Of a DNA stretch of 14,932 nt, positions 474 to 14,932 are shown piece after piece (the first letter of the stretch is position 1; every line of letters begins with the position of its first letter). Origin of the DNA: Promethearchaeota archaeon (GTDB lineage Archaea > Asgardarchaeota > Lokiarchaeia > Sigyniarchaeales > SOKP01); assembly GCA_048940925.1 (NCBI GenBank), contig JBHLOC010000068.1:1-14932 (forward strand). Direction: 5' to 3'. Position numbers and translations under genes: made by a program. A model generated the notes under the pieces. The model saw nothing but the letters and a program-made list of their open reading frames with translations. It was not told the origin of the DNA and ran no database searches.

Positions 474-2405
474 ATGGAAGAAGATGAATTAATTTGGCAA
501 TCTCGCATTAATATCACCCAAGCACCAGAGTTATTTATCCCTAAACCTACACCTGAGAATGTAGTTCCTTTTTATCAAAAACATGAGGATATCAGGTCGT
601 TCCTGTATGATCCTTTTGGAGAAGATCCTCCTGGTACATATGGGCTGGAGTTGAGAGCCAACGAGAAGGTGGAATGCTTTTTTTTTACGAGAGCAGAATC
701 CCGAACTGACGCAATACAATTAGGTTATGCCTGGCTAACGAATCTAAAGTACAAGTTTATAGGATTAGATGGAGTAGTCAAAGCAGAACAAATTAAACAA
801 GATCCTCAGGAAATCCAGAAGAATAACCATTTATTGGAAATCGAGCTTCCAAAAGGATTCATCAAGAATAAAATAAACATAGTAGAGAGGTTTATCAATG
901 CGTTTTATGGTATGAAAGATCGTGAGGTTCAATTGTATATATTATGGCGAAGAGAGCCTCGTTCAGAGAAATCTCAAGAGCAATCAAATTTATTTAATCT
1001 AAGAGTGCTCGTAAGATATTATTTTGAAGGTTCCAATACAGACGAGGAGCTGAAGCTTAAAGGGATTATACAATTTTTGGCGATGGATATAGAGAACCAA
1101 ATGGGTGATCGTGCTAAAGCTGTTAATCCCTCTGGTATCTCACATATAGAGATATTGAAAGGAGAAGTTTTCAAGAACAAAGAAGAATCGTTGAGAACTT
1201 TTGTACAAGAAGATGTGAATTTTGATTTTCCTGAGAATTTACCGCTTCCAAAGCTGCCTATTCTGAAAAATGAGAATGTGAGATATATAGATATTAACGA
1301 AGAGTTTAAAAAAAGAGCGATTACTGTGGGAAAGCATATTAAAGATGGTGTTATCACAGAACATGAGACATTTGTACCAATAAATAAACTTCCTCAAGAT
1401 TTAGCCATTTTTGGGAAATCGGGGAGTGGTAAGACCTATTTTCTTGCTCGATTTATAGATGAACTTTCGAATAAAGCTGGAAATGTAGGCATCTTAGTTC
1501 TAAATGTTGCGAAAGAATCTCAAGAGATATTTTACCGTGATTTCAAGAAGGTGAAATATTCTGACGAGGATTTTCATATACCCTATTATACTGACGCTGA
1601 GAAAGAAACTTTAAACAAACGGTTGCAGGAAACTGCCACATATATTTGTGCTTCATTAGGATTAAAGAATGTATTTGAAAAAATTATTTACCGCACTGAA
1701 GTAGGTTTTTTAGAACTAAAAGGTCAGTTACCAGAATACTTTATAGCGTTACTAAAAGGAGTGGAGACATACATTAGAAACAATCCGTACGGTCCAGAAG
1801 AACAAGCTAATCTATTACAAGTCTTTAGGAATCGAATGAACACTTTTGATGAAGATAAAATTCAAGACGTATTGAAAATCACTGAAAGTTTGCCGAATTG
1901 GGTTAAGGATTGGTTGAGCGGTAAGAATATCTTCCTTAATTTATCAATGTGTAGTAAATTTGTAGAGATGTTGATTGTGAATGCAATATTTCAACTTATA
2001 AGAACGCTAACAAAAGATAGTGAAGCGGAAGAGTTAAAGTATCTCATTGTTATTGATGAGGCTCACGCTATTTTGGAAAAGCCAATTACCATGAACAGCG
2101 ATGACGCTGACTTTATTATGAAGGAACAGATGGCTAAAATATTTTCAGAATTATTAAAGGAATATCGAAGCCGAGGTGTTGGCTTTGTTATTGCAGACCA
2201 ATCTCCTTCTCGATTATTTGATGATGTAGTGTCTCAACCAAGTATTAAAGTAATTTTTAGGGAGGATTACCCGAACAACCTTCTATTTTCTGAAGATCCT
2301 ATTGAAAGACAAATCTTTACTCAATTACCAAATAGGTTAGTATTGGTAATCAATGGAGCAACTGGGGAAAAATTTCTTATTGAAACATTGGATTACTTTT
2401 TTTAG
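474..2405 (+). CDS. HerA/DUF87-family P-loop ATPase (FtsK-HerA superfamily) with about 280-aa N-terminal extension, soluble
   Basis: Walker A AIFGKSGSGKT, Walker B LIVIDEAH, arginine-finger segment LLKEYRSRGVG, sensor IADQSP. No TM segment seen. Confidence 0.9.
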   Translation: MEEDELIWQSRINITQAPELFIPKPTPENVVPFYQKHEDIRSFLYDPFGEDPPGTYGLELRANEKVECFFFTRAESRTDAIQLGYAWLTNLKYKFIGLDGVVKAEQIKQDPQEIQKNNHLLEIELPKGFIKNKINIVERFINAFYGMKDREVQLYILWRREPRSEKSQEQSNLFNLRVLVRYYFEGSNTDEELKLKGIIQFLAMDIENQMGDRAKAVNPSGISHIEILKGEVFKNKEESLRTFVQEDVNFDFPENLPLPKLPILKNENVRYIDINEEFKKRAITVGKHIKDGVITEHETFVPINKLPQDLAIFGKSGSGKTYFLARFIDELSNKAGNVGILVLNVAKESQEIFYRDFKKVKYSDEDFHIPYYTDAEKETLNKRLQETATYICASLGLKNVFEKIIYRTEVGFLELKGQLPEYFIALLKGVETYIRNNPYGPEEQANLLQVFRNRMNTFDEDKIQDVLKITESLPNWVKDWLSGKNIFLNLSMCSKFVEMLIVNAIFQLIRTLTKDSEAEELKYLIVIDEAHAILEKPITMNSDDADFIMKEQMAKIFSELLKEYRSRGVGFVIADQSPSRLFDDVVSQPSIKVIFREDYPNNLLFSEDPIERQIFTQLPNRLVLVINGATGEKFLIETLDYFF

Positions 2406-2425
2406 AGGATTGACAGAAACGTAAA

Positions 2426-2434
2426 TTTTATAAA
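2426..2434 (+). promoter_or_regulatory. Candidate archaeal TATA box for the zinc-ribbon gene pair
   Basis: TTTTATAAA in the short intergenic gap after the ATPase stop, preceded by a purine-rich BRE-like stretch. The AT-rich background weakens this. Confidence 0.35.
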
Positions 2435-2454
2435 TCATATGAATCTTTTGAACA

Positions 2455-3012
2455 GTGAATATCCAGAAAAATAAAAAAGAGAAAAAAAATAACGGGTCAA
2501 TTATGACTTTAGAAGATAAAAAAAAAAAATTTCCTTATATTTGCTCCTCTTGCGGAGAACTTTATCAAGCTTTTAACAAATATTGCGAAAAATGTGGAAC
2601 ATCTTGGTCTATCATGGTGGCTGCGGATGCAGACTATGAAAAAGATTCTACTAAGCGAAAAAGGATAAGTATACCAAAAGAAGAAGTAAGGAAGGGTTTA
2701 ACTTATAGCCTAGTTGCGATTGTTGTAACATTCTTTCTTGCTTTATTTGGTTTAAATTACCTTATTCCAAATTCAACAGGAATCTTTTTAACCTTAACAT
2801 CACTCACATTTATGACAGTTGGGATAGTTTCATTAATAATCTATTTTGTCAATCCCGAAATAAGTTATGGGATGTGGATAAGTAGAAAGAAAAGCAAATA
2901 TCTTGACAATCGAAATGTTTTAGTTGGAAGAAGAATAGTATTGGTAATTACGATTATTGGATTATGTGTATCCACTTTTGTTTTTATTATAATCATCAAT
3001 GCACTTCTTTAA
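2455..3012 (+). CDS. Membrane protein with N-terminal zinc ribbon and about 3 TM helices (true start may be ATG 2503)
   Basis: CSSC...CEKC pair followed by three hydrophobic helices. Annotated start is GTG; an in-frame ATG lies at 2503. Confidence 0.75.
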   Translation: MNIQKNKKEKKNNGSIMTLEDKKKKFPYICSSCGELYQAFNKYCEKCGTSWSIMVAADADYEKDSTKRKRISIPKEEVRKGLTYSLVAIVVTFFLALFGLNYLIPNSTGIFLTLTSLTFMTVGIVSLIIYFVNPEISYGMWISRKKSKYLDNRNVLVGRRIVLVITIIGLCVSTFVFIIIINALL

Positions 3013-3055
3013 TAATCATGAGGATCATGCAAATATTGTTGAAATCTAAGTAATT

Positions 3056-3751
3056 ATGAAAAGTGGAAATCAAAAGAGTTTGGAAAATTTAGATGAGTAT
3101 ATCTTAGAATTTAAGAATTATAAAAGAGGGAAATACAAATTCGGAAATTATTCGACAAAAGAACAAATTCTTGATGAATTCTTAAAAGTTAAGATATTTG
3201 TACTAAAGGGGGGATTAAGGGTAGGAGATTGGATTTTAACACTTTTGATGTTCGGGATAGCGTTAGTATCACTGTTCGCAATATTGCTTCCCGACCCTGA
3301 CCTTGGGATTTTCATAATACCTCTAATTTTCACATTACCAACAGGTTCACTTATGTTGCTTAAACCAAGAAGGTTACTAGTTATCGGTCCGTTGGGTGTC
3401 TCTTATCGAAAAATCTTAAGCTTAGGCGTCTCTTCATGGAAGGATATAATCAATATTAAACATTTTACCCAAACATACAGGGGTTTTAATATAGGGGTAG
3501 TAGTAAAACTCCTAATATCTAATGGGAGAAAAATAAGATTCGGATCAAGTGATTACCTCAATAAGGAATTCCCGAAAAAAGTTCATCGAGAAATGTTTAT
3601 AAATCTTTTTTATATTTACTTTAAACTTGGACAAAATAAAACCTCTAAGGGGTCCTCATATACATCTTATACATGCAAATTATGTGGTTTTAAGTTAACT
3701 ACGGAGGCAGAATTTTGTCCCCAGTGTGGGTTGAGGATCATGTTACCTTAG
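3056..3751 (+). CDS. Membrane protein: 2 TM, beta-rich (PH-like?) soluble domain, C-terminal zinc ribbon
   Basis: Two TM helices, then LLVIGPLGVSYR...SWKDIINIK (resembles bacterial PH-like folds; inference), then CKLCG...AEFCPQCG. Confidence 0.75.
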   Translation: MKSGNQKSLENLDEYILEFKNYKRGKYKFGNYSTKEQILDEFLKVKIFVLKGGLRVGDWILTLLMFGIALVSLFAILLPDPDLGIFIIPLIFTLPTGSLMLLKPRRLLVIGPLGVSYRKILSLGVSSWKDIINIKHFTQTYRGFNIGVVVKLLISNGRKIRFGSSDYLNKEFPKKVHREMFINLFYIYFKLGQNKTSKGSSYTSYTCKLCGFKLTTEAEFCPQCGLRIMLP

Positions 3752-3872
3752 AGAAACAATTTTCTACAAATAACGACGACGACGACAATTTAGGATTATC
3801 CTAATAACCTTCTTTTCTGAAGATCTTTTCGAGCGACAAATGCTTACTTAAATTCCCAAAGCAAAGAAATTT

Positions 3873-4370
3873 ATGGAAGAGGGTTTAAAGCTAGCAGAAA
3901 AATTAGGAGATTTGCACCATAAAAGTATAATGCTTGCAAATTATGGTTTTCTTAATCTGAAATGGAATGAAATCTTGCAAATTATAAAAGAGTCTAATGA
4001 ATTTGTATATTTAATTAGTCCATACTCTCAATTTGAAAGAGACTTATCTACTGAATTGACTTTGATTAAAGATGCTATTATTAATTCATTAAAAAGAGAT
4101 GTTGATGTCAATTTCATCACTCGATCAAGCGATTATAATAAATTAAAATTCATGCATGACGAAGGCTGTAAAATTTATGTTATCCCTAAATTACATTCAA
4201 AAATATATTGTAATGAGTCAAAAGCTCTAATTACGTCAATGAATTTGTATCTAGCTTCCATCTTAAACAATAAGGAAATAGGAATATTATTAACAAAGAA
4301 TAGTGAATTGACAGAATTTAATCAAATTATCTCTTATGCAGTGGATCTAACAAAAAGTAGCAGTATTTAA
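3873..4370 (+). CDS. Phospholipase D-superfamily single-HKD protein (putative nuclease) with an N-terminal TPR-like fragment
   Basis: LISPY, LHSKIYCNE (HxK-x4-E variant), TSMNL and NKEIG motifs in the order expected for a PLD-like domain. Confidence 0.85.
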   Translation: MEEGLKLAEKLGDLHHKSIMLANYGFLNLKWNEILQIIKESNEFVYLISPYSQFERDLSTELTLIKDAIINSLKRDVDVNFITRSSDYNKLKFMHDEGCKIYVIPKLHSKIYCNESKALITSMNLYLASILNNKEIGILLTKNSELTEFNQIISYAVDLTKSSSI

Positions 4371-4416: not shown

Positions 4417-4458
4417 AATGATCTATATTTTTTGATAGCCTTAAAATACAAGATCATT
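4417..4458. terminator. Stem-loop between the convergent PLD and S8 genes, overlapping the S8 stop codon
   Basis: AATGATCT(4417-24)/AGATCATT(4451-58) plus TATTTT(4426-31)/AAAATA(4443-48), 11-nt loop. Function inferred from position only. Confidence 0.4.
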
Positions 4459-6202
4459 TATTTCTCAGTTTATTAAAGGGTTTAAAGACTCCCATTAGAA
4501 AGTGAACGACGGGAGAGACAACTAATTTCTTAATAAAATTCCTGAAAAGGTGATTTTGTTGCATAGTTCGTGCTACACGTGGACTGAATTTATAGTAAAT
4601 CCACTCATATGCATCAATAAAGAGTGCTCCAATTCTCCGTTTTCTTAATCTAACATCTCTAATATGTCGTAGAAATCTCACTTGTGGAGCTAATGGAGAT
4701 CCGTAAGCTGCTGTAGCAATGAAGCAAATTTTTCCTGAAACAGATGCTTCTGCGTCGACTAATCCATGTCCTGTTGCATCATCGATTCCTTCGATGGCAA
4801 TGTCACCACATGCAGATGTACCTTTTGTTATATCTCTTGCCTTATTAACCAGCTTGTGTTTAATTAAGGCAGGAGTAAAATCTACTCCATCTCCACGGTA
4901 TCTTTCTATCATAAGTGCAGCTACTCCCGCTACTTGTGGGGCTGCACTAGAAGTTCCGCTTCCAACAATCCAACCATCATCTGTTTCTGTTTGATCAGCA
5001 CCGGCAAAACTATTATCTGCTTCACAGTTAGGTTGCGTTGGTAATGTTATAAAAATTCCATTTGGAGCTTGACCAACAATACCACATACATCTGGAATTT
5101 TTCTTGGACCTGATGAATCGGAATATAAAACTGATTCTCCACTGCTTGCATAACTAGATGCTTCCCAGTTATTTGAGTCTTCCCAGTTCTCTAGATTGTT
5201 TATGTATGCTCCACCTACAGATATAACCTCTGGCATAGTACTTGGCCAACCAACGATACATTGAATAATTTGTTCTTTATTTCCTGCAGCAAATATGACT
5301 GTTATATTTCTATCTATTAAAGCTTCAATCTCTGCTTCCAATACTGGTCTATATTCAATAAAATCTTCCGCGAGAAGCATACACCCTTCGGGTATCCCCC
5401 AACTACATGAAAGTATATCGACTTTACTACCAGCATCAACAAAGGCGGTAGCAAAAAGTGCAGTTGAAAGATCGCAAATTTCCCATTCTTCATCGAATGC
5501 TTTAATCATAGTTAAATGTACATCTGGAGCAACTGCAAAAAGATTAGCTGCAATTGCAGTTCCGTGTCCTACGTCATCATTATCAACACCACCAACAACC
5601 GAGTGGACATCAATAGAATAACCTCTTGAAGAATAATATGGATGCCTATAAAATCCTGAATCAATCATAACTACATGCACTCCTCTCCCCGTATAACCCC
5701 AATTATGACATTCCGAGGCTTTTAAGAGTTCAGCTATTTGATCTGGGACTTTTAAATGATGATAAGCTGGAGATGGCGGATTTGGAGATTGAAAAAATCT
5801 AAAAGGAGGGGAAAAGGTTACTTTTTCAATTAAATCAGCCAACTCTTCAGGGATTTTAATTTCTGTAATTGGTGAAAAATATCTTGCTCTCGGCTTTCTT
5901 GCATCTATATATACAGAAAACCTCCTTTTTTTTAACTTCACTCTAAAAGTTTCTTCAAAGAGAGTTCTGGGAGAAGATATTATAATATTGAACCTTCCCT
6001 TTACAATAACTTTAAACCCTAACTCCTCCAGCCTTTTACTTGCTGAATCAAAAGCACCTTCAGGAGGATCGAAATCTTTGAGATTTCGTTTTTTACCCTT
6101 TTCCCTCTCAAAAAGTGATTTTCCTGTGGAAGATCGAAGAGTAAGGATTGCATGAATTACATCTTCAGGTCTTTCATTGTCTATACTATTGGAAATTTTA
6201 GA
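4454..6202 (-). CDS. S8 (subtilisin-family) serine peptidase with N-terminal prodomain and C-terminal CFI-box-CTERM domain; start codon uncertain
   Basis: Catalytic D (VVMIDSG), H (DVGHGTAIA), oxyanion N (FAAGN), S (GTSSAAPQVAG); tail CFIATAAYGSPLAPQVRFLRHIRD. Manual translation shows the frame open from the track's GTG (5941) up to 6202. Confidence 0.9.
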   Translation of the reverse strand, partial: SKISNSIDNERPEDVIHAILTLRSSTGKSLFEREKGKKRNLKDFDPPEGAFDSASKRLEELGFKVIVKGRFNIIISSPRTLFEETFRVKLKKRRFSVYIDARKPRARYFSPITEIKIPEELADLIEKVTFSPPFRFFQSPNPPSPAYHHLKVPDQIAELLKASECHNWGYTGRGVHVVMIDSGFYRHPYYSSRGYSIDVHSVVGGVDNDDVGHGTAIAANLFAVAPDVHLTMIKAFDEEWEICDLSTALFATAFVDAGSKVDILSCSWGIPEGCMLLAEDFIEYRPVLEAEIEALIDRNITVIFAAGNKEQIIQCIVGWPSTMPEVISVGGAYINNLENWEDSNNWEASSYASSGESVLYSDSSGPRKIPDVCGIVGQAPNGIFITLPTQPNCEADNSFAGADQTETDDGWIVGSGTSSAAPQVAGVAALMIERYRGDGVDFTPALIKHKLVNKARDITKGTSACGDIAIEGIDDATGHGLVDAEASVSGKICFIATAAYGSPLAPQVRFLRHIRDVRLRKRRIGALFIDAYEWIYYKFSPRVARTMQQNHLFRNFIKKLVVSPVVHFLMGVFKPFNKLRNK

Positions 6203-6499
6203 TCACATATTGTTTATATTTTTTAAAATGTATGATGTTTTCATTGGATAAAAATAAGAATTATAGTAAAGTATTTAACATTTATGAAAACTTGTCCATT
6301 GGTAACAAAGATCAATTTTAATAGAAAGAGAGGAGTAAAAGGAATTACTCCTGAGAAATGCTCTTTGTTTTTTGATAACCTCAAAAAACCAGAATATGCA
6401 AGAAATAGTGATCAAATTGGTGTTTGAGTTTGGGTATTTAAATTGCCTGAATTTTGCTATTTTTTCTCTAAATATCACTTTAACCTATCATTAACTGAA

Positions 6500-6868
6500 C
6501 TAACTCATAACTTCTATAATCTCTGCTTCAGAAAGAGGTCCTTTTTCAAAAAATCCGGGGTATTGTTTTTTATCCTCACTTGTATTCCAAAAGCCTAAAT
6601 CGAGCCAATAAAGAGAATGGTAGATATCTCCTTTTTCAGTTTCAACTTCTACACCCACAAGAAACTCACCCCAACCACTTCCCCTTTTCAGAAAACCATT
6701 TGTTTTATCTCTAGAATGAATTATATTAGTCGAAAAAGATTTGTGTAGATAGTATTTAACATATTTTATATCCGCAATTTTAATACTGTCATCAGTAGTT
6801 TCTACTAAAAATATTTCCCAATCCCAATAATTACTCCTTACCCTTTTAAATTTATTCTGAACTCTCAT
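6500..6868 (-). CDS. Stand-alone prokaryotic YEATS (pYEATS) domain protein, 122 aa
   Basis: WDWEIFL...IKYVKYYLHKSF...GSGWGEFLVGVEV matches the YEATS signature (LHxSF and GWGEF). Start re-called to ATG 6868, which forms an ATGA overlap with the upstream stop. Confidence 0.85.
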   Translation of the reverse strand: MRVQNKFKRVRSNYWDWEIFLVETTDDSIKIADIKYVKYYLHKSFSTNIIHSRDKTNGFLKRGSGWGEFLVGVEVETEKGDIYHSLYWLDLGFWNTSEDKKQYPGFFEKGPLSEAEIIEVMS

Positions 6869-7497
6869 GTTAATTGCACCTTCCTCTGCTTTATACGACA
6901 TCCGTAAAGATTCCAATTTTGATCTTTATAGGTTAATGCGATTCTTACGCATGGATCTTTTAGCTGAGCGGGAATATTAATATCGATATAAGGGATAATT
7001 TTATCTCGTTCTTGGTCAGTTGTAATTGTTAAATCAGTATAAATATTAACCTGCTCGTTTTCGATAATCAATTCAGTACCTTCAAGAATTGAATAGGAAC
7101 ACTTTGTATTTGCAAAATCTTCAAAAGCGATTGGGATTAGATCGTGAGTATCACATGGAATAAATTCGAGAATTAACCGGAATTTTTCAAATCCCCCCTT
7201 TTGTAGTGCTTTCAAATTATCTTTTAATTTTTTAATTTCTTTTCTTTTGTCTTCAACAAGTCTACGGTCACCAACCTGATAAAAGGCTTCTGGTTTGAAA
7301 ATTGCTAAGAAAAAAACGAATGCAACAACCACTAAAAATAATATGAAAGGAATCATTTCTGAAATCATCCCAGTTCCCAATAATGTAAGAAAAATTGATT
7401 CGATAATTAAAATTGTTAATGTAAAAAAACCTAGTGGACTTGTCACAGCATTTATAATATTGATTTTAGCACTTCTTGTTTTATCTTCATCACTCAT
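6865..7497 (-). CDS. 2-TM membrane protein with coiled coil and beta-rich C-terminal domain, coupled to the YEATS gene
   Basis: Two helices (PLGFFTLTILIIESIFLTLL; IPFILFLVVVAFVFFLAIF-KPE), heptad-like KRKEIKKLKDNLKALQK. Its TGA stop overlaps the next ATG. Confidence 0.8.
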   Translation of the reverse strand: MSDEDKTRSAKINIINAVTSPLGFFTLTILIIESIFLTLLGTGMISEMIPFILFLVVVAFVFFLAIFKPEAFYQVGDRRLVEDKRKEIKKLKDNLKALQKGGFEKFRLILEFIPCDTHDLIPIAFEDFANTKCSYSILEGTELIIENEQVNIYTDLTITTDQERDKIIPYIDINIPAQLKDPCVRIALTYKDQNWNLYGCRIKQRKVQLT

Positions 7498-7741
7498 TTT
7501 ATCAACCTTCAGTTTGTTAATTTAGAAATATAATTCCTAAAGAAAGGATTTCAACAACAATAGACATAAATCTATTCAAAAAATAATTGATTTCATATTG
7601 ACTAAGACGGATTAATATTTAACTTTTTTGTATATTTTATTGATTTCATAAATTTTACTCATAAATTTTACAGGTATTACAATTTTTTCTTTAAATACAA
7701 AAAGAATATTGCACAGATAATGAAATAATTTAGGTGTTAAA

Positions 7742-7993
7742 ATGACTCCATATAAGGTAAAATTTGAAATTGAGATTGATGAGAATCAAGAATGTTCGAT
7801 TAATATAGGAAGGGCTGATGAAATATCCCAGTATATTGAAAATTTACATGAGTTATTACCAGATACATATCCGAATGTCAACTTAAATAGTAATGACAAT
7901 TTACATAAGCTTAAGAGTGATAATAGAACAGAATTACTGACAGTGTTCGAAGCATTGCTTGAAGCCATATTTAATGTAGAAATTCAATCATAA
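7742..7993 (+). CDS. Small acidic hypothetical protein
   Basis: 83-aa ORF with SD-like AGGTG just upstream of the ATG; divergent from the 2TM-YEATS block. Confidence 0.65.
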   Translation: MTPYKVKFEIEIDENQECSINIGRADEISQYIENLHELLPDTYPNVNLNSNDNLHKLKSDNRTELLTVFEALLEAIFNVEIQS

Positions 7994-8053: not shown

Positions 8054-9328
8054 TTATGGATTCTTTAGTTTTTTCCTTATTATGAATACTACAATGGTTA
8101 TAATGCTCATTAGAAAGAATAGGTTATAGCCAGAAATTTTTAGTGTATCATCATCTCCAGATAAAAATTTTGCAATGAAAGCGTCGCGATCACCACTACC
8201 AAAACTTTTGGTATATCCAGTAATATAGATATTTCCCGAATCATCCAACACAATACTACTTCCACCATCATCATCACTCCCACCCCAGGTGAAACTACGC
8301 AAGGAATTCCCGGCATTGTCATATTTTGCGATGAACGCATCATAACCACCCGCACCAAAGCTATAGGTTCTTCCCGTAATGTAGATATTTCCCGAATCAT
8401 CTAATGTAATACCTGATCCTGGATCATAATGACTCCCTCCCCAGGTGATGTTAAACAAGGAATTCCCAGCACTGTCAAATTTTGCGATGAAAGCATCATA
8501 ATTACCCACAGCAAAGCTATTGGTATGTCCTACAATGTAGATATTTCCCGAATTATCCAACACTATATCATTCCCACTTTCAAGATTGCTTCCACCCCAT
8601 GTGATGTTGAGCAAGGAATTCCCAGCACTATCAAATTTTGCAATAAAAGCATCATAATCACCCGCACCAATACCAGAGACGCTTCCCGTAATATAGATTT
8701 TTCCTGACTCATCTAAAACAATACCATTTCCATTCCCCCCCACATCGCTACCACCCCAGGTAATGTTAAGCAATGAATTCCCAGCACTGTCATATTTTGC
8801 AATAAAAGCGTTATGACCAAAACTATCAGTCTCTCCTGTAATGTAGATATTTCCCGAATTATCCAACACTATATCATCCCCCTCATCATTATTGCTCCCG
8901 CCCCAGGTGATATTAAGCAAGGAATTCCCAGCACTATCAAATTTTGCAATAAAAGCATCATAATTACCTACAGTAAAACTAAGGGTACGTCCTGTAATGT
9001 AGATATTTCCCGAGTCATCTAATGCAATAGCATCCCCAGAATCATAATCGCTCCCGCCCCAGGTGATGTTAAGCAAGGAATTCCCAGCACTGTCATATTT
9101 TGCGATGAAAGCATCATAAAAACCCATACCAAAACTACGAGTATTTCCTGTAATATAGATATTTCCCGAGTCATCTAACACAATATCATGCCCAAAATCC
9201 CAATTGCTCCCACCCCAGGTGATATTCAAATCTGATTCATGAACACTTATGGTTGCATTGCACAAACTAGACGAAAATAAAGTGACAATAATTAGACTAC
9301 TTACGATATGTCCTTTTCTAAGAGTCAT
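8054..9328 (-). CDS. Secreted SBBP-repeat 7-bladed beta-propeller surface protein with Loki-CTERM-type anchor
   Basis: N-terminal signal-like helix; seven repeats of about 52 aa (TWGGS..D.G..I.LD.SGNIYITG.T.SF..G.YDAFIAK[YF]DSAGN); tail ISGYNLFFLMSIITIVVFIIRKKLKNP. Confidence 0.9.
   Translation of the reverse strand: MTLRKGHIVSSLIIVTLFSSSLCNATISVHESDLNITWGGSNWDFGHDIVLDDSGNIYITGNTRSFGMGFYDAFIAKYDSAGNSLLNITWGGSDYDSGDAIALDDSGNIYITGRTLSFTVGNYDAFIAKFDSAGNSLLNITWGGSNNDEGDDIVLDNSGNIYITGETDSFGHNAFIAKYDSAGNSLLNITWGGSDVGGNGNGIVLDESGKIYITGSVSGIGAGDYDAFIAKFDSAGNSLLNITWGGSNLESGNDIVLDNSGNIYIVGHTNSFAVGNYDAFIAKFDSAGNSLFNITWGGSHYDPGSGITLDDSGNIYITGRTYSFGAGGYDAFIAKYDNAGNSLRSFTWGGSDDDGGSSIVLDDSGNIYITGYTKSFGSGDRDAFIAKFLSGDDDTLKISGYNLFFLMSIITIVVFIIRKKLKNP
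8165..9220 (-). repeat. Intragenic tandem repeat, 7 units of about 156 bp
   Basis: CCCCA(G/T)GT anchor (Thr-Trp-Gly codons) recurs at 8283, 8439, 8595, 8754, 8901, 9057 and 9213; spacings 156, 156, 159, 147, 156, 156. Confidence 0.9.
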
Positions 9329-9514
9329 TGTTTAAAATAAGACAATAGTGTCTAATGTTGTTTAATGGGAAGCATCATTTTTTTTTAAATATTTTGGTTC
9401 AAACAGTATACGTTTTAAACGCTTTCCAATTTTATATCTAAACACGCATTTCCATTGTTTTTTTAAATTCTTTTTTAGTGTTGTTTTTAATGCTCTAAAT
9501 TAATAGAAAATCAA

Positions 9515-11296
9515 ATGTCTAACCTGATCGAATTAGTCTTTCTGTTTTTAGTTCTTATTCTAACGGGATTATGCATCATATATTTCATAGCTCAGAAAAG
9601 GGAGAATTCACTTGTCCTCCTAAGATATATTATCATGCTTCTTTTAGGGATCTCAGTCATCATTTTCATTATAAATTCATTACCCGTTATAACATCTGCT
9701 TCGGATCCTGAAATTTCTTCTGAAAATGTAATAATAACTAATATCCCACTTCTGTTACTCTGTTTTTCAACTGCATTGTTCATTTATTCACTAAATAATT
9801 CTGATGAAGATGTAGTAGAATTGGGCAATCCTTCAATCTTTAAATCGAGGAAAGGTACAATTAAAGTTGGCAGAGTAATGAAAGGAGAGCATAAGAAGCA
9901 CAAATTTTTTCTTTCACTTAAAGATCTGGAAAAGCACATGTTTGTTTGTGGAGCGACAGGTACAGGAAAGACAACATTTCTGCAATATTTTCTCATGAAT
10001 TTTACCAAGCATCATAATATTCCTTTTATGCTGGTAGAATTTAAGGGAGAGTACCATTTTTTACAACAGAAAATTGAAAATTTACTGATAATACGACCGG
10101 GAGAGAATTTTTCGATAAATATCTTTAATCCGGGGGACATCGCTCCAGAAGTTCATGCTGAACGAGTTTTCGATATATTAAAGAGTGGAAAGTTTTTAGA
10201 TGAGAATGCTGAGTTTAGCCCCCAAATGGAAATGGTTCTCGTTGAAATTCTAACAAAGGTATGTGGGCACAAACAATTTCAGAGTTGGAAAGGATTTTAT
10301 GATTACTGCAAGGGGTATGCGAAGAATAAAAAGGATGAGATACCAATGTTAAGTCAGACTCTCATCAGCATTACAAACAGGATTAGGCGGTTTTCCTTAG
10401 GATCTTTAAAAGCATTATTTGACACAGATCATAAAATTAAAATAGACAATATCTTCGAAAGAAATATCCTCATTGATTTGAGTTCAATTATACGATTGGG
10501 AGGAGAGAAAGAAGATGCTCTTTTCTTTTTGAATATGCTATTAAAATACTTATGGGATAAAAATCTCACACGGGGAGCGTTTAATTTTAAGGGTATAAAA
10601 CATATGACGATTGTTGAAGACACCCAATATTTTGCCCCAAAAGATCTAACACGACAAAATAAGTTGACTAGCTATTTAGAAGATATTGCTTTGCTTCAAA
10701 GAGGAACAGGAGAATGTTTAATTTCCTTAGCAACTCACCCTGATATAAGTCAAGAGATTCTGGCAAATTGTGGTGTTTTAGTATGTTTCAAAACTCACAT
10801 GGAAAAAGAAAACTTGTGTAAATTATTAAATCTTGACACAGAACATGAAGATTACCTTTCTATTTTGGAGGAAGGACAATGTTTAATTCGAACTAATTCC
10901 ATCAAGAGACCATTTCTGCTTAATGTTCCCCCTGTTAAAAGGTATTGGTTAGAAATATCAGAGATTAACAGAAATAATCAAATAATTTTAGAAAATCTTG
11001 AAAATGAAATTTTTGAGAGCTTGAAAGCACCACATTTTAAATTTATAAAGAAAATTAAGGAAAAAAGTGTTAAAAGTATGAAAAGAATAAAAAATAAAGT
11101 AAAAGGAATTAAAGAAAACCTCAAAAATAAGTTTAGCAATAAGGAAATTAATTCAATAGATCCATCCGATTTTGACCTCGAGAAAGATGATTTTAAAGAA
11201 TATGATGACATTTTTGATGAATCTGAAAAAGAGAGATTAGAATATGAGAAATTGAAAAATTATATAAATGAGCTAGCTGCAAAACAAAAAAAATAA
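9515..11296 (+). CDS. Membrane-anchored HerA/DUF87 (VirB4/VirD4/CedB-like) ATPase with 3 N-terminal TM helices and a charged C-terminal tail
   Basis: Three hydrophobic helices; DLEKHMFVCGATGTGKTT (Walker A); LVEFKGEY; MTIVEDTQ (altered Walker B); LLQRGTG; LATHP. Confidence 0.88.
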   Translation: MSNLIELVFLFLVLILTGLCIIYFIAQKRENSLVLLRYIIMLLLGISVIIFIINSLPVITSASDPEISSENVIITNIPLLLLCFSTALFIYSLNNSDEDVVELGNPSIFKSRKGTIKVGRVMKGEHKKHKFFLSLKDLEKHMFVCGATGTGKTTFLQYFLMNFTKHHNIPFMLVEFKGEYHFLQQKIENLLIIRPGENFSINIFNPGDIAPEVHAERVFDILKSGKFLDENAEFSPQMEMVLVEILTKVCGHKQFQSWKGFYDYCKGYAKNKKDEIPMLSQTLISITNRIRRFSLGSLKALFDTDHKIKIDNIFERNILIDLSSIIRLGGEKEDALFFLNMLLKYLWDKNLTRGAFNFKGIKHMTIVEDTQYFAPKDLTRQNKLTSYLEDIALLQRGTGECLISLATHPDISQEILANCGVLVCFKTHMEKENLCKLLNLDTEHEDYLSILEEGQCLIRTNSIKRPFLLNVPPVKRYWLEISEINRNNQIILENLENEIFESLKAPHFKFIKKIKEKSVKSMKRIKNKVKGIKENLKNKFSNKEINSIDPSDFDLEKDDFKEYDDIFDESEKERLEYEKLKNYINELAAKQKK

Positions 11297-14479: not shown

Positions 14480-14932
14480 CTAAGATTTCTTCAATTTTTC
14501 GCCCATTATAATTACTACAACTGATATAATGCCAAGCAGAATGAAGAGATTATATCCAGGAATTCTCTCACTGTCTTGACCATAAGTGCAAGAACCATTA
14601 TCGCTAAAAGTATTTCCTATGCAATTTTCTTCAAAAATGCAATATCTACCATTTCCTTGTAAAGTATTTCCCGAAACGATATTATAATTGCTTTCCAATA
14701 AAAATATTCCATCACCATTGTAGTTTGCAGTATTTCCTGAGATAGTGTTATAGTTACTCCAATCTAAAAATATCCCCATTCCGTTATTATTTGCAATATT
14801 TCCAGAAATAACGTTATTTTCACTACCTGATAAGTCTATCCCAAATCCGCCGTTTTCATTTGCATTATTTCCCGATACGGTGTTGTAATAACTTCCGTGT
14901 AAACCTATTCCATGAGAATTGTTATTTGCGGT
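14480..14932 (-). CDS. C-terminal part of a right-handed parallel beta-helix (NosD/CASH-type) surface protein with Loki-CTERM-type anchor; 5' end lies outside the window
   Basis: Frame open to base 14932 (TANNNSHGIGLHGSYYNTVSGNNANENGGFGIDLSGSENNVISGNIANNNGMGIFL...); about 22-aa GI.L..S..N.ISGN.AN.N repeats; tail IPGYNLFILLGIISVVVIIMGEKLKKS. Confidence 0.9.
   Translation of the reverse strand, partial: TANNNSHGIGLHGSYYNTVSGNNANENGGFGIDLSGSENNVISGNIANNNGMGIFLDWSNYNTISGNTANYNGDGIFLLESNYNIVSGNTLQGNGRYCIFEENCIGNTFSDNGSCTYGQDSERIPGYNLFILLGIISVVVIIMGEKLKKS

Follow-up and report, generated by a model that had tools for sequence, protein, structure and literature searches.

A conserved two-gene unit of a 2TM membrane protein and a stand-alone prokaryotic YEATS domain, predicted beside a separate subtilase gene in an Asgard archaeon

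Results

Gene organization of the locus

The DNA analysed here (the window, 14,932 bp) is the entire contig JBHLOC010000068.1 (contig C6) of the assembly GCA_048940925.1 (4.8 Mb, 90 contigs) of a Promethearchaeota archaeon. It carries three neighbouring genes coding, respectively, for a protein with two transmembrane (TM) helices, called hereafter the 2TM protein, for a stand-alone prokaryotic YEATS (pYEATS) domain and for a subtilisin-like protease of the S8 family ending with a CFI-box-CTERM tail. In an earlier interpretation made from the letters alone (the sequence-only reading), the three genes were proposed to form a single signalling or antiviral system. The comparative analysis presented below is in better agreement with two independent units, a 2TM-pYEATS sensor/membrane cassette and a stand-alone S8 protease, a reading to which we attribute a probability of about 0.6. 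The features on which the analysis relies are the following:

6865-7497, minus strand: 2TM partner protein, open reading frame (ORF) of 210 aa
6877-6884, minus strand: Shine-Dalgarno-like GGAAGGTG, 8 nt ahead of the ATG of pYEATS and still within the 2TM gene (3' end)
6500-6868, minus strand: stand-alone pYEATS, 122 aa from the ATG at 6868-6866
6290-6406, no strand: putative junction between two independently inherited units, from blastn against the loci L026-L030 and L031 and from DNA alignments
6212-6227, minus strand: TATA-like box rich in A/T, some 24 nt ahead of the S8 start position, from the DNA alignment with the loci L031 and L032
4454-6196, minus strand: S8 protease read from the ATT at 6196-6194, 580 aa
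4454-5941, minus strand: S8 protease ORF from its first GTG; the stop-to-stop frame extends up to 6202 (582 aa)
4517-4726, minus strand: CFI-box-CTERM domain of the protease (NF041770)
7742-7993, plus strand: divergent ORF of 83 aa, no family

All three genes are real and co-oriented on the minus strand, as had been claimed. The ATGA in which the 2TM stop codon overlaps the pYEATS start codon is directly visible in the sequence at 6868-6865, as the sequence-only reading had reported. The ATG at 6868 was retained as the pYEATS start in preference to the TTG at 6916 because of the GGAAGGTG motif located 8 nt upstream; for the 2TM gene, a GAAGGT sits 7 nt upstream of the ATG. The distance of about 300 bp previously given between the pair and the protease gene is compatible with the 303 bp found between the pYEATS stop (6500) and the orthologous S8 start position (6196), the GTG at 5941 being 558 bp away from the same stop.

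The pYEATS protein

The 122-aa protein is a bona fide prokaryotic YEATS domain. Membership was decided on the curated gathering scores of Pfam, and the protein reached 46.3 bits against PF20305 (cut-off 26.9) and 30.3 bits against PF03366 (cut-off 22). The match was reproduced in a genome-wide profile search, which highlighted the 6500-6868 protein as the sole pYEATS of this genome. The profile of the pYEATS family also matched the structures of human GAS41/YEATS4 (E 1.7e-11), the segments LHKSF (aa 41-45) and GWGEF (aa 65-69) being aligned, respectively, with LHESY and GWGEF of GAS41. The aromatic cage is intact and consists of His42, Ser44, Phe45, Trp66 and Phe69, carried by the motifs LHxSF and GWGEF. 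In an alignment of 11 sequences, Phe69 was invariant and His42, Phe45 and Trp66 were nearly invariant, and these four residues were all invariant in the seven pYEATS proteins linked to a 2TM gene.

The only role established by experiment for YEATS domains is the reading of acylated histone lysines in eukaryotes, and we know of no prokaryotic YEATS protein with a demonstrated ligand or function. Among 400 genomes of the same phylum (Asgard), pYEATS was present in 12, a sporadic occurrence suggesting horizontal movement and arguing against a vertically inherited chromatin reader. Another and apparently common architecture, with a C-terminal pYEATS in proteins of about 195-205 aa, was observed at L025:1727-2311 (minus strand) and in the proteins P0131-P0163; an N-terminal hydrophobic segment was seen in the L025 protein, and two of the proteins of this type carry the NCBI names Kapabacteria and Acidobacteriia.

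The 2TM partner protein

The hydropathy profile of the 2TM protein revealed two strong hydrophobic helices (about aa 21-42 and 48-68) separated by a loop of 5 residues, with a net charge of +5 after the second helix (TM2). Given the two TM helices and the positive stretch that follows TM2, both ends of the protein should be cytoplasmic. An AlphaFold2 model was obtained from an alignment of 54 sequences with a mean pLDDT of 85. It consists of an N-terminal helix, TM1 (aa 21-40), TM2 (aa 49-67), a long helix (aa 75-100) and an eight-strand beta-sandwich (aa 103-209), in which Trp195 is invariant in the family. According to this model, the 2TM hairpin of the partner leads into a predicted cytoplasmic beta-sandwich of immunoglobulin (Ig)-like type.

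No Pfam, NCBIfam, PADLOC or PHROG family could be assigned to the 2TM protein, nor any Pfam family to the 54 members of its alignment. When the model was compared with the PDB (Foldseek) and, by shape, with the ESM Atlas, only generic Ig-like or nanobody-type matches were obtained, with TM-scores by query of at most 0.45. When 1.84 billion representatives were searched exhaustively with a profile, 800 relatives were recovered, of which about 60 are full length (160-195 aa). The N-terminal 2TM module alone was also found at the head of NUDIX, 2H-phosphoesterase, nucleoside-deoxyribosyltransferase-like and methyltransferase proteins (P0214, P0244, P0282, P0307 and P0230), which hints at a shared membrane module serving nucleotide-processing or sensor domains.

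YLATT, for 'YEATS-Like-Associating Three TM', is a family of pYEATS membrane partners. With its profile (PF20303), no match was detected at E values up to 1 in the 54 members of the 2TM family, and the genome-wide search gave none on the gene of the window; SLATT was likewise without a match in the 54 members and in the genome-wide search. The 2TM family shares with YLATT the genomic association with pYEATS, which was observed in 7/7 Asgard genomes and on 4/4 informative contigs, and it departs from YLATT by its TM helices, two instead of three both by hydropathy and in the model, which are followed by a soluble beta-sandwich. Since it has this different architecture and no YLATT or SLATT match, the 2TM protein was filed as a variant pYEATS membrane partner and not as a member of YLATT.

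Conservation of the 2TM-pYEATS pair

The 400 Asgard genomes were searched with the 54-member profile, and the 2TM family was found in seven of them (G000, G011, G012, G018, G342, G370 and G381). In all seven, a pYEATS gene lies directly downstream of the 2TM gene on the same strand, the copy of G012 being cut by the contig end. Neither gene is carried by any of the 53 genomes of the same genus that were searched. Six distant metagenomic representatives were also looked up, four of them on informative contigs (P0171, P0175, P0186 and P0204). On each of these four contigs the pYEATS gene directly follows, mostly with a 4-nt overlap, and the two other representatives have an overlapping downstream ORF that is ended by the end of the contig. 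A stop/start overlap or a very short spacer thus recurs across the 2TM-pYEATS loci. These results strongly support the 2TM-YEATS link put forward in the sequence-only reading, and they point to a conserved two-gene unit with predicted translational coupling. By the same comparison, the two genes appear to have been inherited and moved together, both among Asgard archaea and to metagenome contigs, some of which have neighbours of bacterial appearance.

The sub-types of the two partners co-vary, a pYEATS with a C-terminal tail going with one sub-type of the 2TM sandwich; observed in a few lineages, this co-variation is weak evidence that the two proteins may co-evolve. On the P0171 contig, the partner of the 2TM protein has 460 aa and combines pYEATS with a STAND-type NTPase (AAA_22/nSTAND2); a 679-aa TIR protein is encoded upstream of the 2TM gene, at a distance of about 0.8 kb and separated from it by a single gene.

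No third conserved gene was detected outside the close relatives by all-versus-all BLASTP of the ORFs within 4 kb at ten loci. A PLD-like nuclease was considered as a third partner and rejected, the copies of G370 and G381 being only 24% identical to the product of window 3873-4370; furthermore, the window copy is encoded on the opposite strand as the last gene of the HerA operon, and those of G370 and G381 are downstream of pYEATS. The divergent 83-aa ORF is 85% identical to an 89-aa ORF of locus L026 and is kept in close relatives only. With no counterpart at independent loci and no Pfam or PHROG match, it is predicted to stand outside the widely conserved pair.

The protease gene in related loci

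The fate of the protease gene was followed in both directions, from the pair and from the protease itself. In the 2-19 kb surrounding the other Asgard pairs, no S8 gene was revealed by tblastn, and the genes called on the metagenome contigs with a 2TM-pYEATS pair included none. In the closest relatives, the 2TM and pYEATS proteins are, respectively, 85% and 83% identical to those of the window, with 85% DNA identity. The homologous DNA covers window 6406-7980 and a HerA-like gene (9474-10407), and it stops about 95 bp past the pYEATS stop; in the place of the protease, these relatives have a protein of 502 aa, weakly similar to PIN and EVE, followed by a 139-aa protein. The locus of the protease orthologue P0006 (L031) matches the window only over 4454-6290, without 2TM or pYEATS gene. 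Two further protease homologues have unrelated neighbours, and no conserved protease neighbour was found in three homologous loci. At the level of the genomes, the CFI-box is present in 40 of the 400 and in none of the six others that carry the 2TM-pYEATS pair, so that the genome studied here is the only overlap. The TATA-like box upstream of the protease is kept in the orthologue loci L031 and L032 and is not followed by a Shine-Dalgarno motif, which suggests that the gene may have a promoter of its own and a short or absent leader. On this comparative basis, the protease is predicted to be an unrelated neighbour forming a separate unit.

The proposal that a 2TM sensor, a YEATS reader and an S8 protease act as one signalling or antiviral system has in its favour the co-orientation and adjacency of the genes in the window, the lack of a signal peptide on the protease, which would share the cytoplasm with pYEATS, and a PADLOC match to the generic 'subtilase' model (PDLC03014, E 3.6e-10). 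This match is the only one of its kind and neither IetA nor IetS was recognized, so the analogy with IetAS drawn in the sequence-only reading is not sustained. Against the proposal stand the lack of S8 near any other pair, the different gene that follows the pair in the 85%-identical relatives (homology ending at 6406), the unrelated contexts of the S8 orthologues (homology to the window ending at 6290), the co-occurrence of CFI-box and pair in 1/400 genomes, and the conserved promoter-like box and mutated start codon that the protease has for itself. The absence of co-occurrence in other genomes, which the sequence-only reading had itself named as contrary evidence, was observed for the protease, while the 2TM-pYEATS pair does co-occur. 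The comparative data appear to bring the three-gene model close to refuted, and we consider it very improbable.

Domains and start codon of the protease

The protease matched PF00082 (E 2.7e-22), and the triad D179, H211 and S416 as well as the oxyanion residue N306 (numbering from the ATT) were invariant in 40 sequences, in agreement with the intact triad noticed earlier. In the structural model (pLDDT 84), a confident alpha/beta N-terminal domain precedes the subtilisin core, and the tail is helical but modelled with low confidence. The subtilisin fold was recognized by Foldseek with a TM-score of about 0.8 normalised by target length, and the top whole-chain matches were pro-kumamolisin and pro-tripeptidyl-peptidase 1 (pro-TPP1). 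As these best matches are zymogens, the N-terminal domain is probably a prodomain. The lack of a signal peptide holds for the family: no signal peptide or hydrophobic N-terminus was present in the ten full-length sequences, window copy included, of an alignment of 11, the eleventh (P0007) being a frameshifted call without N-terminus.

The CFI-box tail was also confirmed, with 70-75 bits against NF041770 (70.4 bits at aa 493-562 of 582; cut-off 40). The hydropathy of the tail does not exceed 1.37, with no strongly hydrophobic TM segment, and the model places helices there with a pLDDT of 50-70 over aa 490-580. The protease is the sole CFI-box protein of the genome. In Asgard archaea, the CFI-box was mostly observed on proteins some 170 aa long that have CxxC zinc ribbons at the N-terminus and no signal peptide (G320:C80, G335:C3 and G328:C6; L048-L050). 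Such proteins fit poorly with a function restricted to tagging exported proteins, and in this lineage the tail is probably cytoplasmic or peripherally attached to the membrane.

No ATG, GTG or TTG codon precedes the GTG at 5941 in the subtilase frame. The 87 codons upstream of this GTG are nevertheless real coding sequence, as they align with the N-termini of nine full-length homologues, all hydrophilic. At 6196-6194 the window has an ATT where the DNA alignment shows an ATG in P0006 and P0007, and P0006, a 580-aa orthologue with 71% identity from another genus of the same family, aligns from its Met at this position. Owing to this ATG-to-ATT change, the protease may be poorly expressed or decaying; the gene would either use a weak or rare start, or produce a GTG-truncated form, or be decaying or mis-assembled. 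A bulge-helix-bulge (BHB) mini-intron was rejected as the cause of the missing start, the window being colinear with its orthologues across the start with a single G-to-T change. An in-frame ATG-TGA is present just upstream of the ATT, within the stretch 6194-6208 (minus strand) that also holds the ATT. The homologue P0007, 56% identical, is split by a frameshift (L032:6750-8512, plus strand), and an 86-aa ORF of L032 that overlaps the P0007 start encodes an N-terminal prodomain-like part.

Neighbouring genes

A co-directional block of four genes (474-4370, plus strand) is convergent with the protease gene. It codes for a HerA-like ATPase of 643 aa, which matches PADLOC mad8 (E 3e-15) as well as several models of HerA, for two proteins with zinc ribbons (185 and 231 aa) and for a small 165-aa nuclease of PLD-like type (PLDc_2) that weakly resembles DrmC/DpdK. 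The block has the appearance of a candidate defence operon in its own right. On the other side of the pair, an SBBP beta-propeller protein is encoded at 8054-9328 (minus strand); it has hydrophobic segments at both its N- and C-terminus and is probably located at the surface. The 85%-identical relatives have a NosD/beta-helix protein at this position instead, and a NosD-like fragment is found at the end of the window (14480-14932, minus strand); the SBBP/NosD position is thus a second variable slot next to the 2TM-pYEATS pair. The contig carries two HerA/FtsK-like ATPases. A PHROGs search of the contig returned HerA/terminase-like ATPase similarity only and no viral hallmark genes.

Discussion

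Proposed function of the pair

The reading with two independent units leads to a proposal modelled on the conflict systems predicted for pYEATS in combination with TM or TIR/STAND partners. The first gene of the cassette would produce a membrane hairpin protein exposing a C-terminal coiled coil and the Ig-like beta-sandwich to the cytoplasm, and the second a small cytoplasmic pYEATS with an intact cage for acyl-amide binding. The pYEATS protein would be the sensor of an acylated or similar amide ligand arising in invasion or stress; once bound to this ligand, it may change its hold on the membrane partner, which would then either permeabilise the membrane or signal there. The protease would be a stand-alone cytoplasmic subtilase of zymogen type, with a CFI-box tail and its own promoter, that landed in this strain in the variable slot downstream of the cassette.

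A conflict role is favoured by the patchy distribution of the pair, by its variable flanks and by the STAND fusion with a TIR gene close by. The neighbours include HerA-like and PLD/DrmC-like genes and, in the relatives, weakly PIN/EVE-like genes. Furthermore, pYEATS is listed among the ligand-binding domains reported in conflict contexts (2026 preprint, bioRxiv 10.64898/2026.10.19.760177). The defence role suggested in the sequence-only reading is consequently plausible for the 2TM-pYEATS pair, and only the protease as a third component has to be removed from it. In its most extended form, the proposal would make the pair an undescribed and widespread abortive-infection or stress device in which a membrane effector is gated by an acyl-amide reader of the YEATS type; from the copies in Asgard archaea it would then follow that, among the archaeal relatives of eukaryotes, YEATS readers served conflict sensing linked to the membrane, either earlier than their chromatin role or alongside it. 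We put this forward as a tentative and rather doubtful extension.

Several observations weigh against the two-unit reading and the function proposed with it. The function attributed to the pair is a computational prediction, and PADLOC has no model matching the 2TM or the pYEATS protein. The effector chemistry is unreadable from the beta-sandwich, its structural matches being only generic Ig-like ones. Several loci are located among ordinary genes (ABC transporter, APH-type kinase, RagA-like GTPase), so that a non-defence membrane role is conceivable. On the side of the protease, the ATT start could be an assembly error. Co-folding of the cytoplasmic part of the 2TM protein (aa 69-210) with pYEATS gave a score of 0.00 and no verdict, which is evidence neither way.

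The same ordinary neighbours and the same lack of a known defence model are what would be expected if the pair were a housekeeping or accessory membrane-signalling device sensing, for example, acylated proteins, lipids or metabolites at the membrane, and the 2TM module found on NUDIX, 2H-phosphoesterase, nucleoside deoxyribosyltransferase-like and methyltransferase domains, possibly metabolic, goes in this direction too. A housekeeping function is difficult to conciliate with a very patchy presence (7/400 genomes and 0/53 of the same genus), with flanks that vary even between 85%-identical relatives, with the pYEATS-STAND fusion near a TIR gene among homologous pairs and with the conflict contexts reported for pYEATS in the 2026 preprint; we regard it as possible, although unlikely. 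The patchy and mobile distribution, together with the small size and coupling of the two genes and the lack of any other conserved partner, could also suit a toxin-antitoxin-like addiction module of a mobile element, in which a membrane toxin would be neutralised by pYEATS without ligand sensing, and two HerA/FtsK-like ATPases on a contig of 14.9 kb are typical of archaeal mobile elements. What such a module does not account for is the cage, in which His42 and Trp66 are nearly invariant and Phe69 is invariant. Conserved in distant members, the cage argues for ligand binding, and the pYEATS-STAND NTPase fusion of some members is the architecture of a sensor and not of an antitoxin. An addiction module is therefore improbable in our opinion.

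Under the preferred reading, that of a 2TM-pYEATS cassette independent of the protease, the pair offers a compact and testable unit, with an intact cage, a defined obligate partner whose structure can be modelled, clear boundaries and a protease to be left out. Should it be a defence or stress module, it would represent a new sensor logic in prokaryotic immunity, based on a reader of acyl marks or amide ligands, and it would bear on the origin of the eukaryotic chromatin readers. The negative result matters as well, since a three-component protease system is not worth pursuing.

Comparison with known systems

The pair is of a known kind, a pYEATS with a membrane partner, which has already been predicted computationally; the partner described here is a variant outside Pfam and YLATT. 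pYEATS was reportedly introduced in a J Bacteriol paper of 2020. In the literature collection searched by name, 'pYEATS' was mentioned in one paper and 'CFI-box-CTERM' and 'YLATT' in none. Like the predicted pYEATS conflict systems (PF20305 with YLATT PF20303, or TIR/STAND/ParA fusions), the pair has a true pYEATS domain, tight coupling to a small membrane protein, a patchy mobile distribution and a pYEATS-STAND protein near TIR. It differs from the YLATT-containing systems by a partner with two TM helices, not three, and by the additional cytoplasmic beta-sandwich of about 105 aa.

With the two-gene abortive-infection modules that use TM effectors (CBASS/Pycsar, SLATT-type), the cassette has in common a small membrane protein and a cytoplasmic sensing component, and it may work in a comparable way. 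It shows no sequence or profile similarity to them, however, and lacks a nucleotide-synthesising enzyme, and pore formation is hypothetical here.

As in IetAS and other protease-containing defence systems, the S8 subtilase of the window has an intact triad, but it is without an IetA-like ATPase partner and without a specific PADLOC IetS match, and it is solitary in every locus examined. It shares its N-terminal prodomain-like domain with the sedolisin/subtilase zymogens (pro-kumamolisin, PDB 1t1e), which, with pro-TPP1, provide the best whole-chain structural matches. Unlike the sedolisins, whose triad is Glu/Asp/Ser, the protease has an Asp/His/Ser triad and carries a CFI-box-CTERM tail. The pYEATS protein, for its part, has the fold family and the cage motifs LHxSF/GWGEF in common with the eukaryotic YEATS readers (GAS41/YEATS4, Yaf9, YEATS2, AF9, ENL and Taf14); in contrast with them, it is a stand-alone protein of 122 aa without chromatin-complex partner domains, coupled to a membrane protein, and its ligand binding is predicted from the conserved cage.

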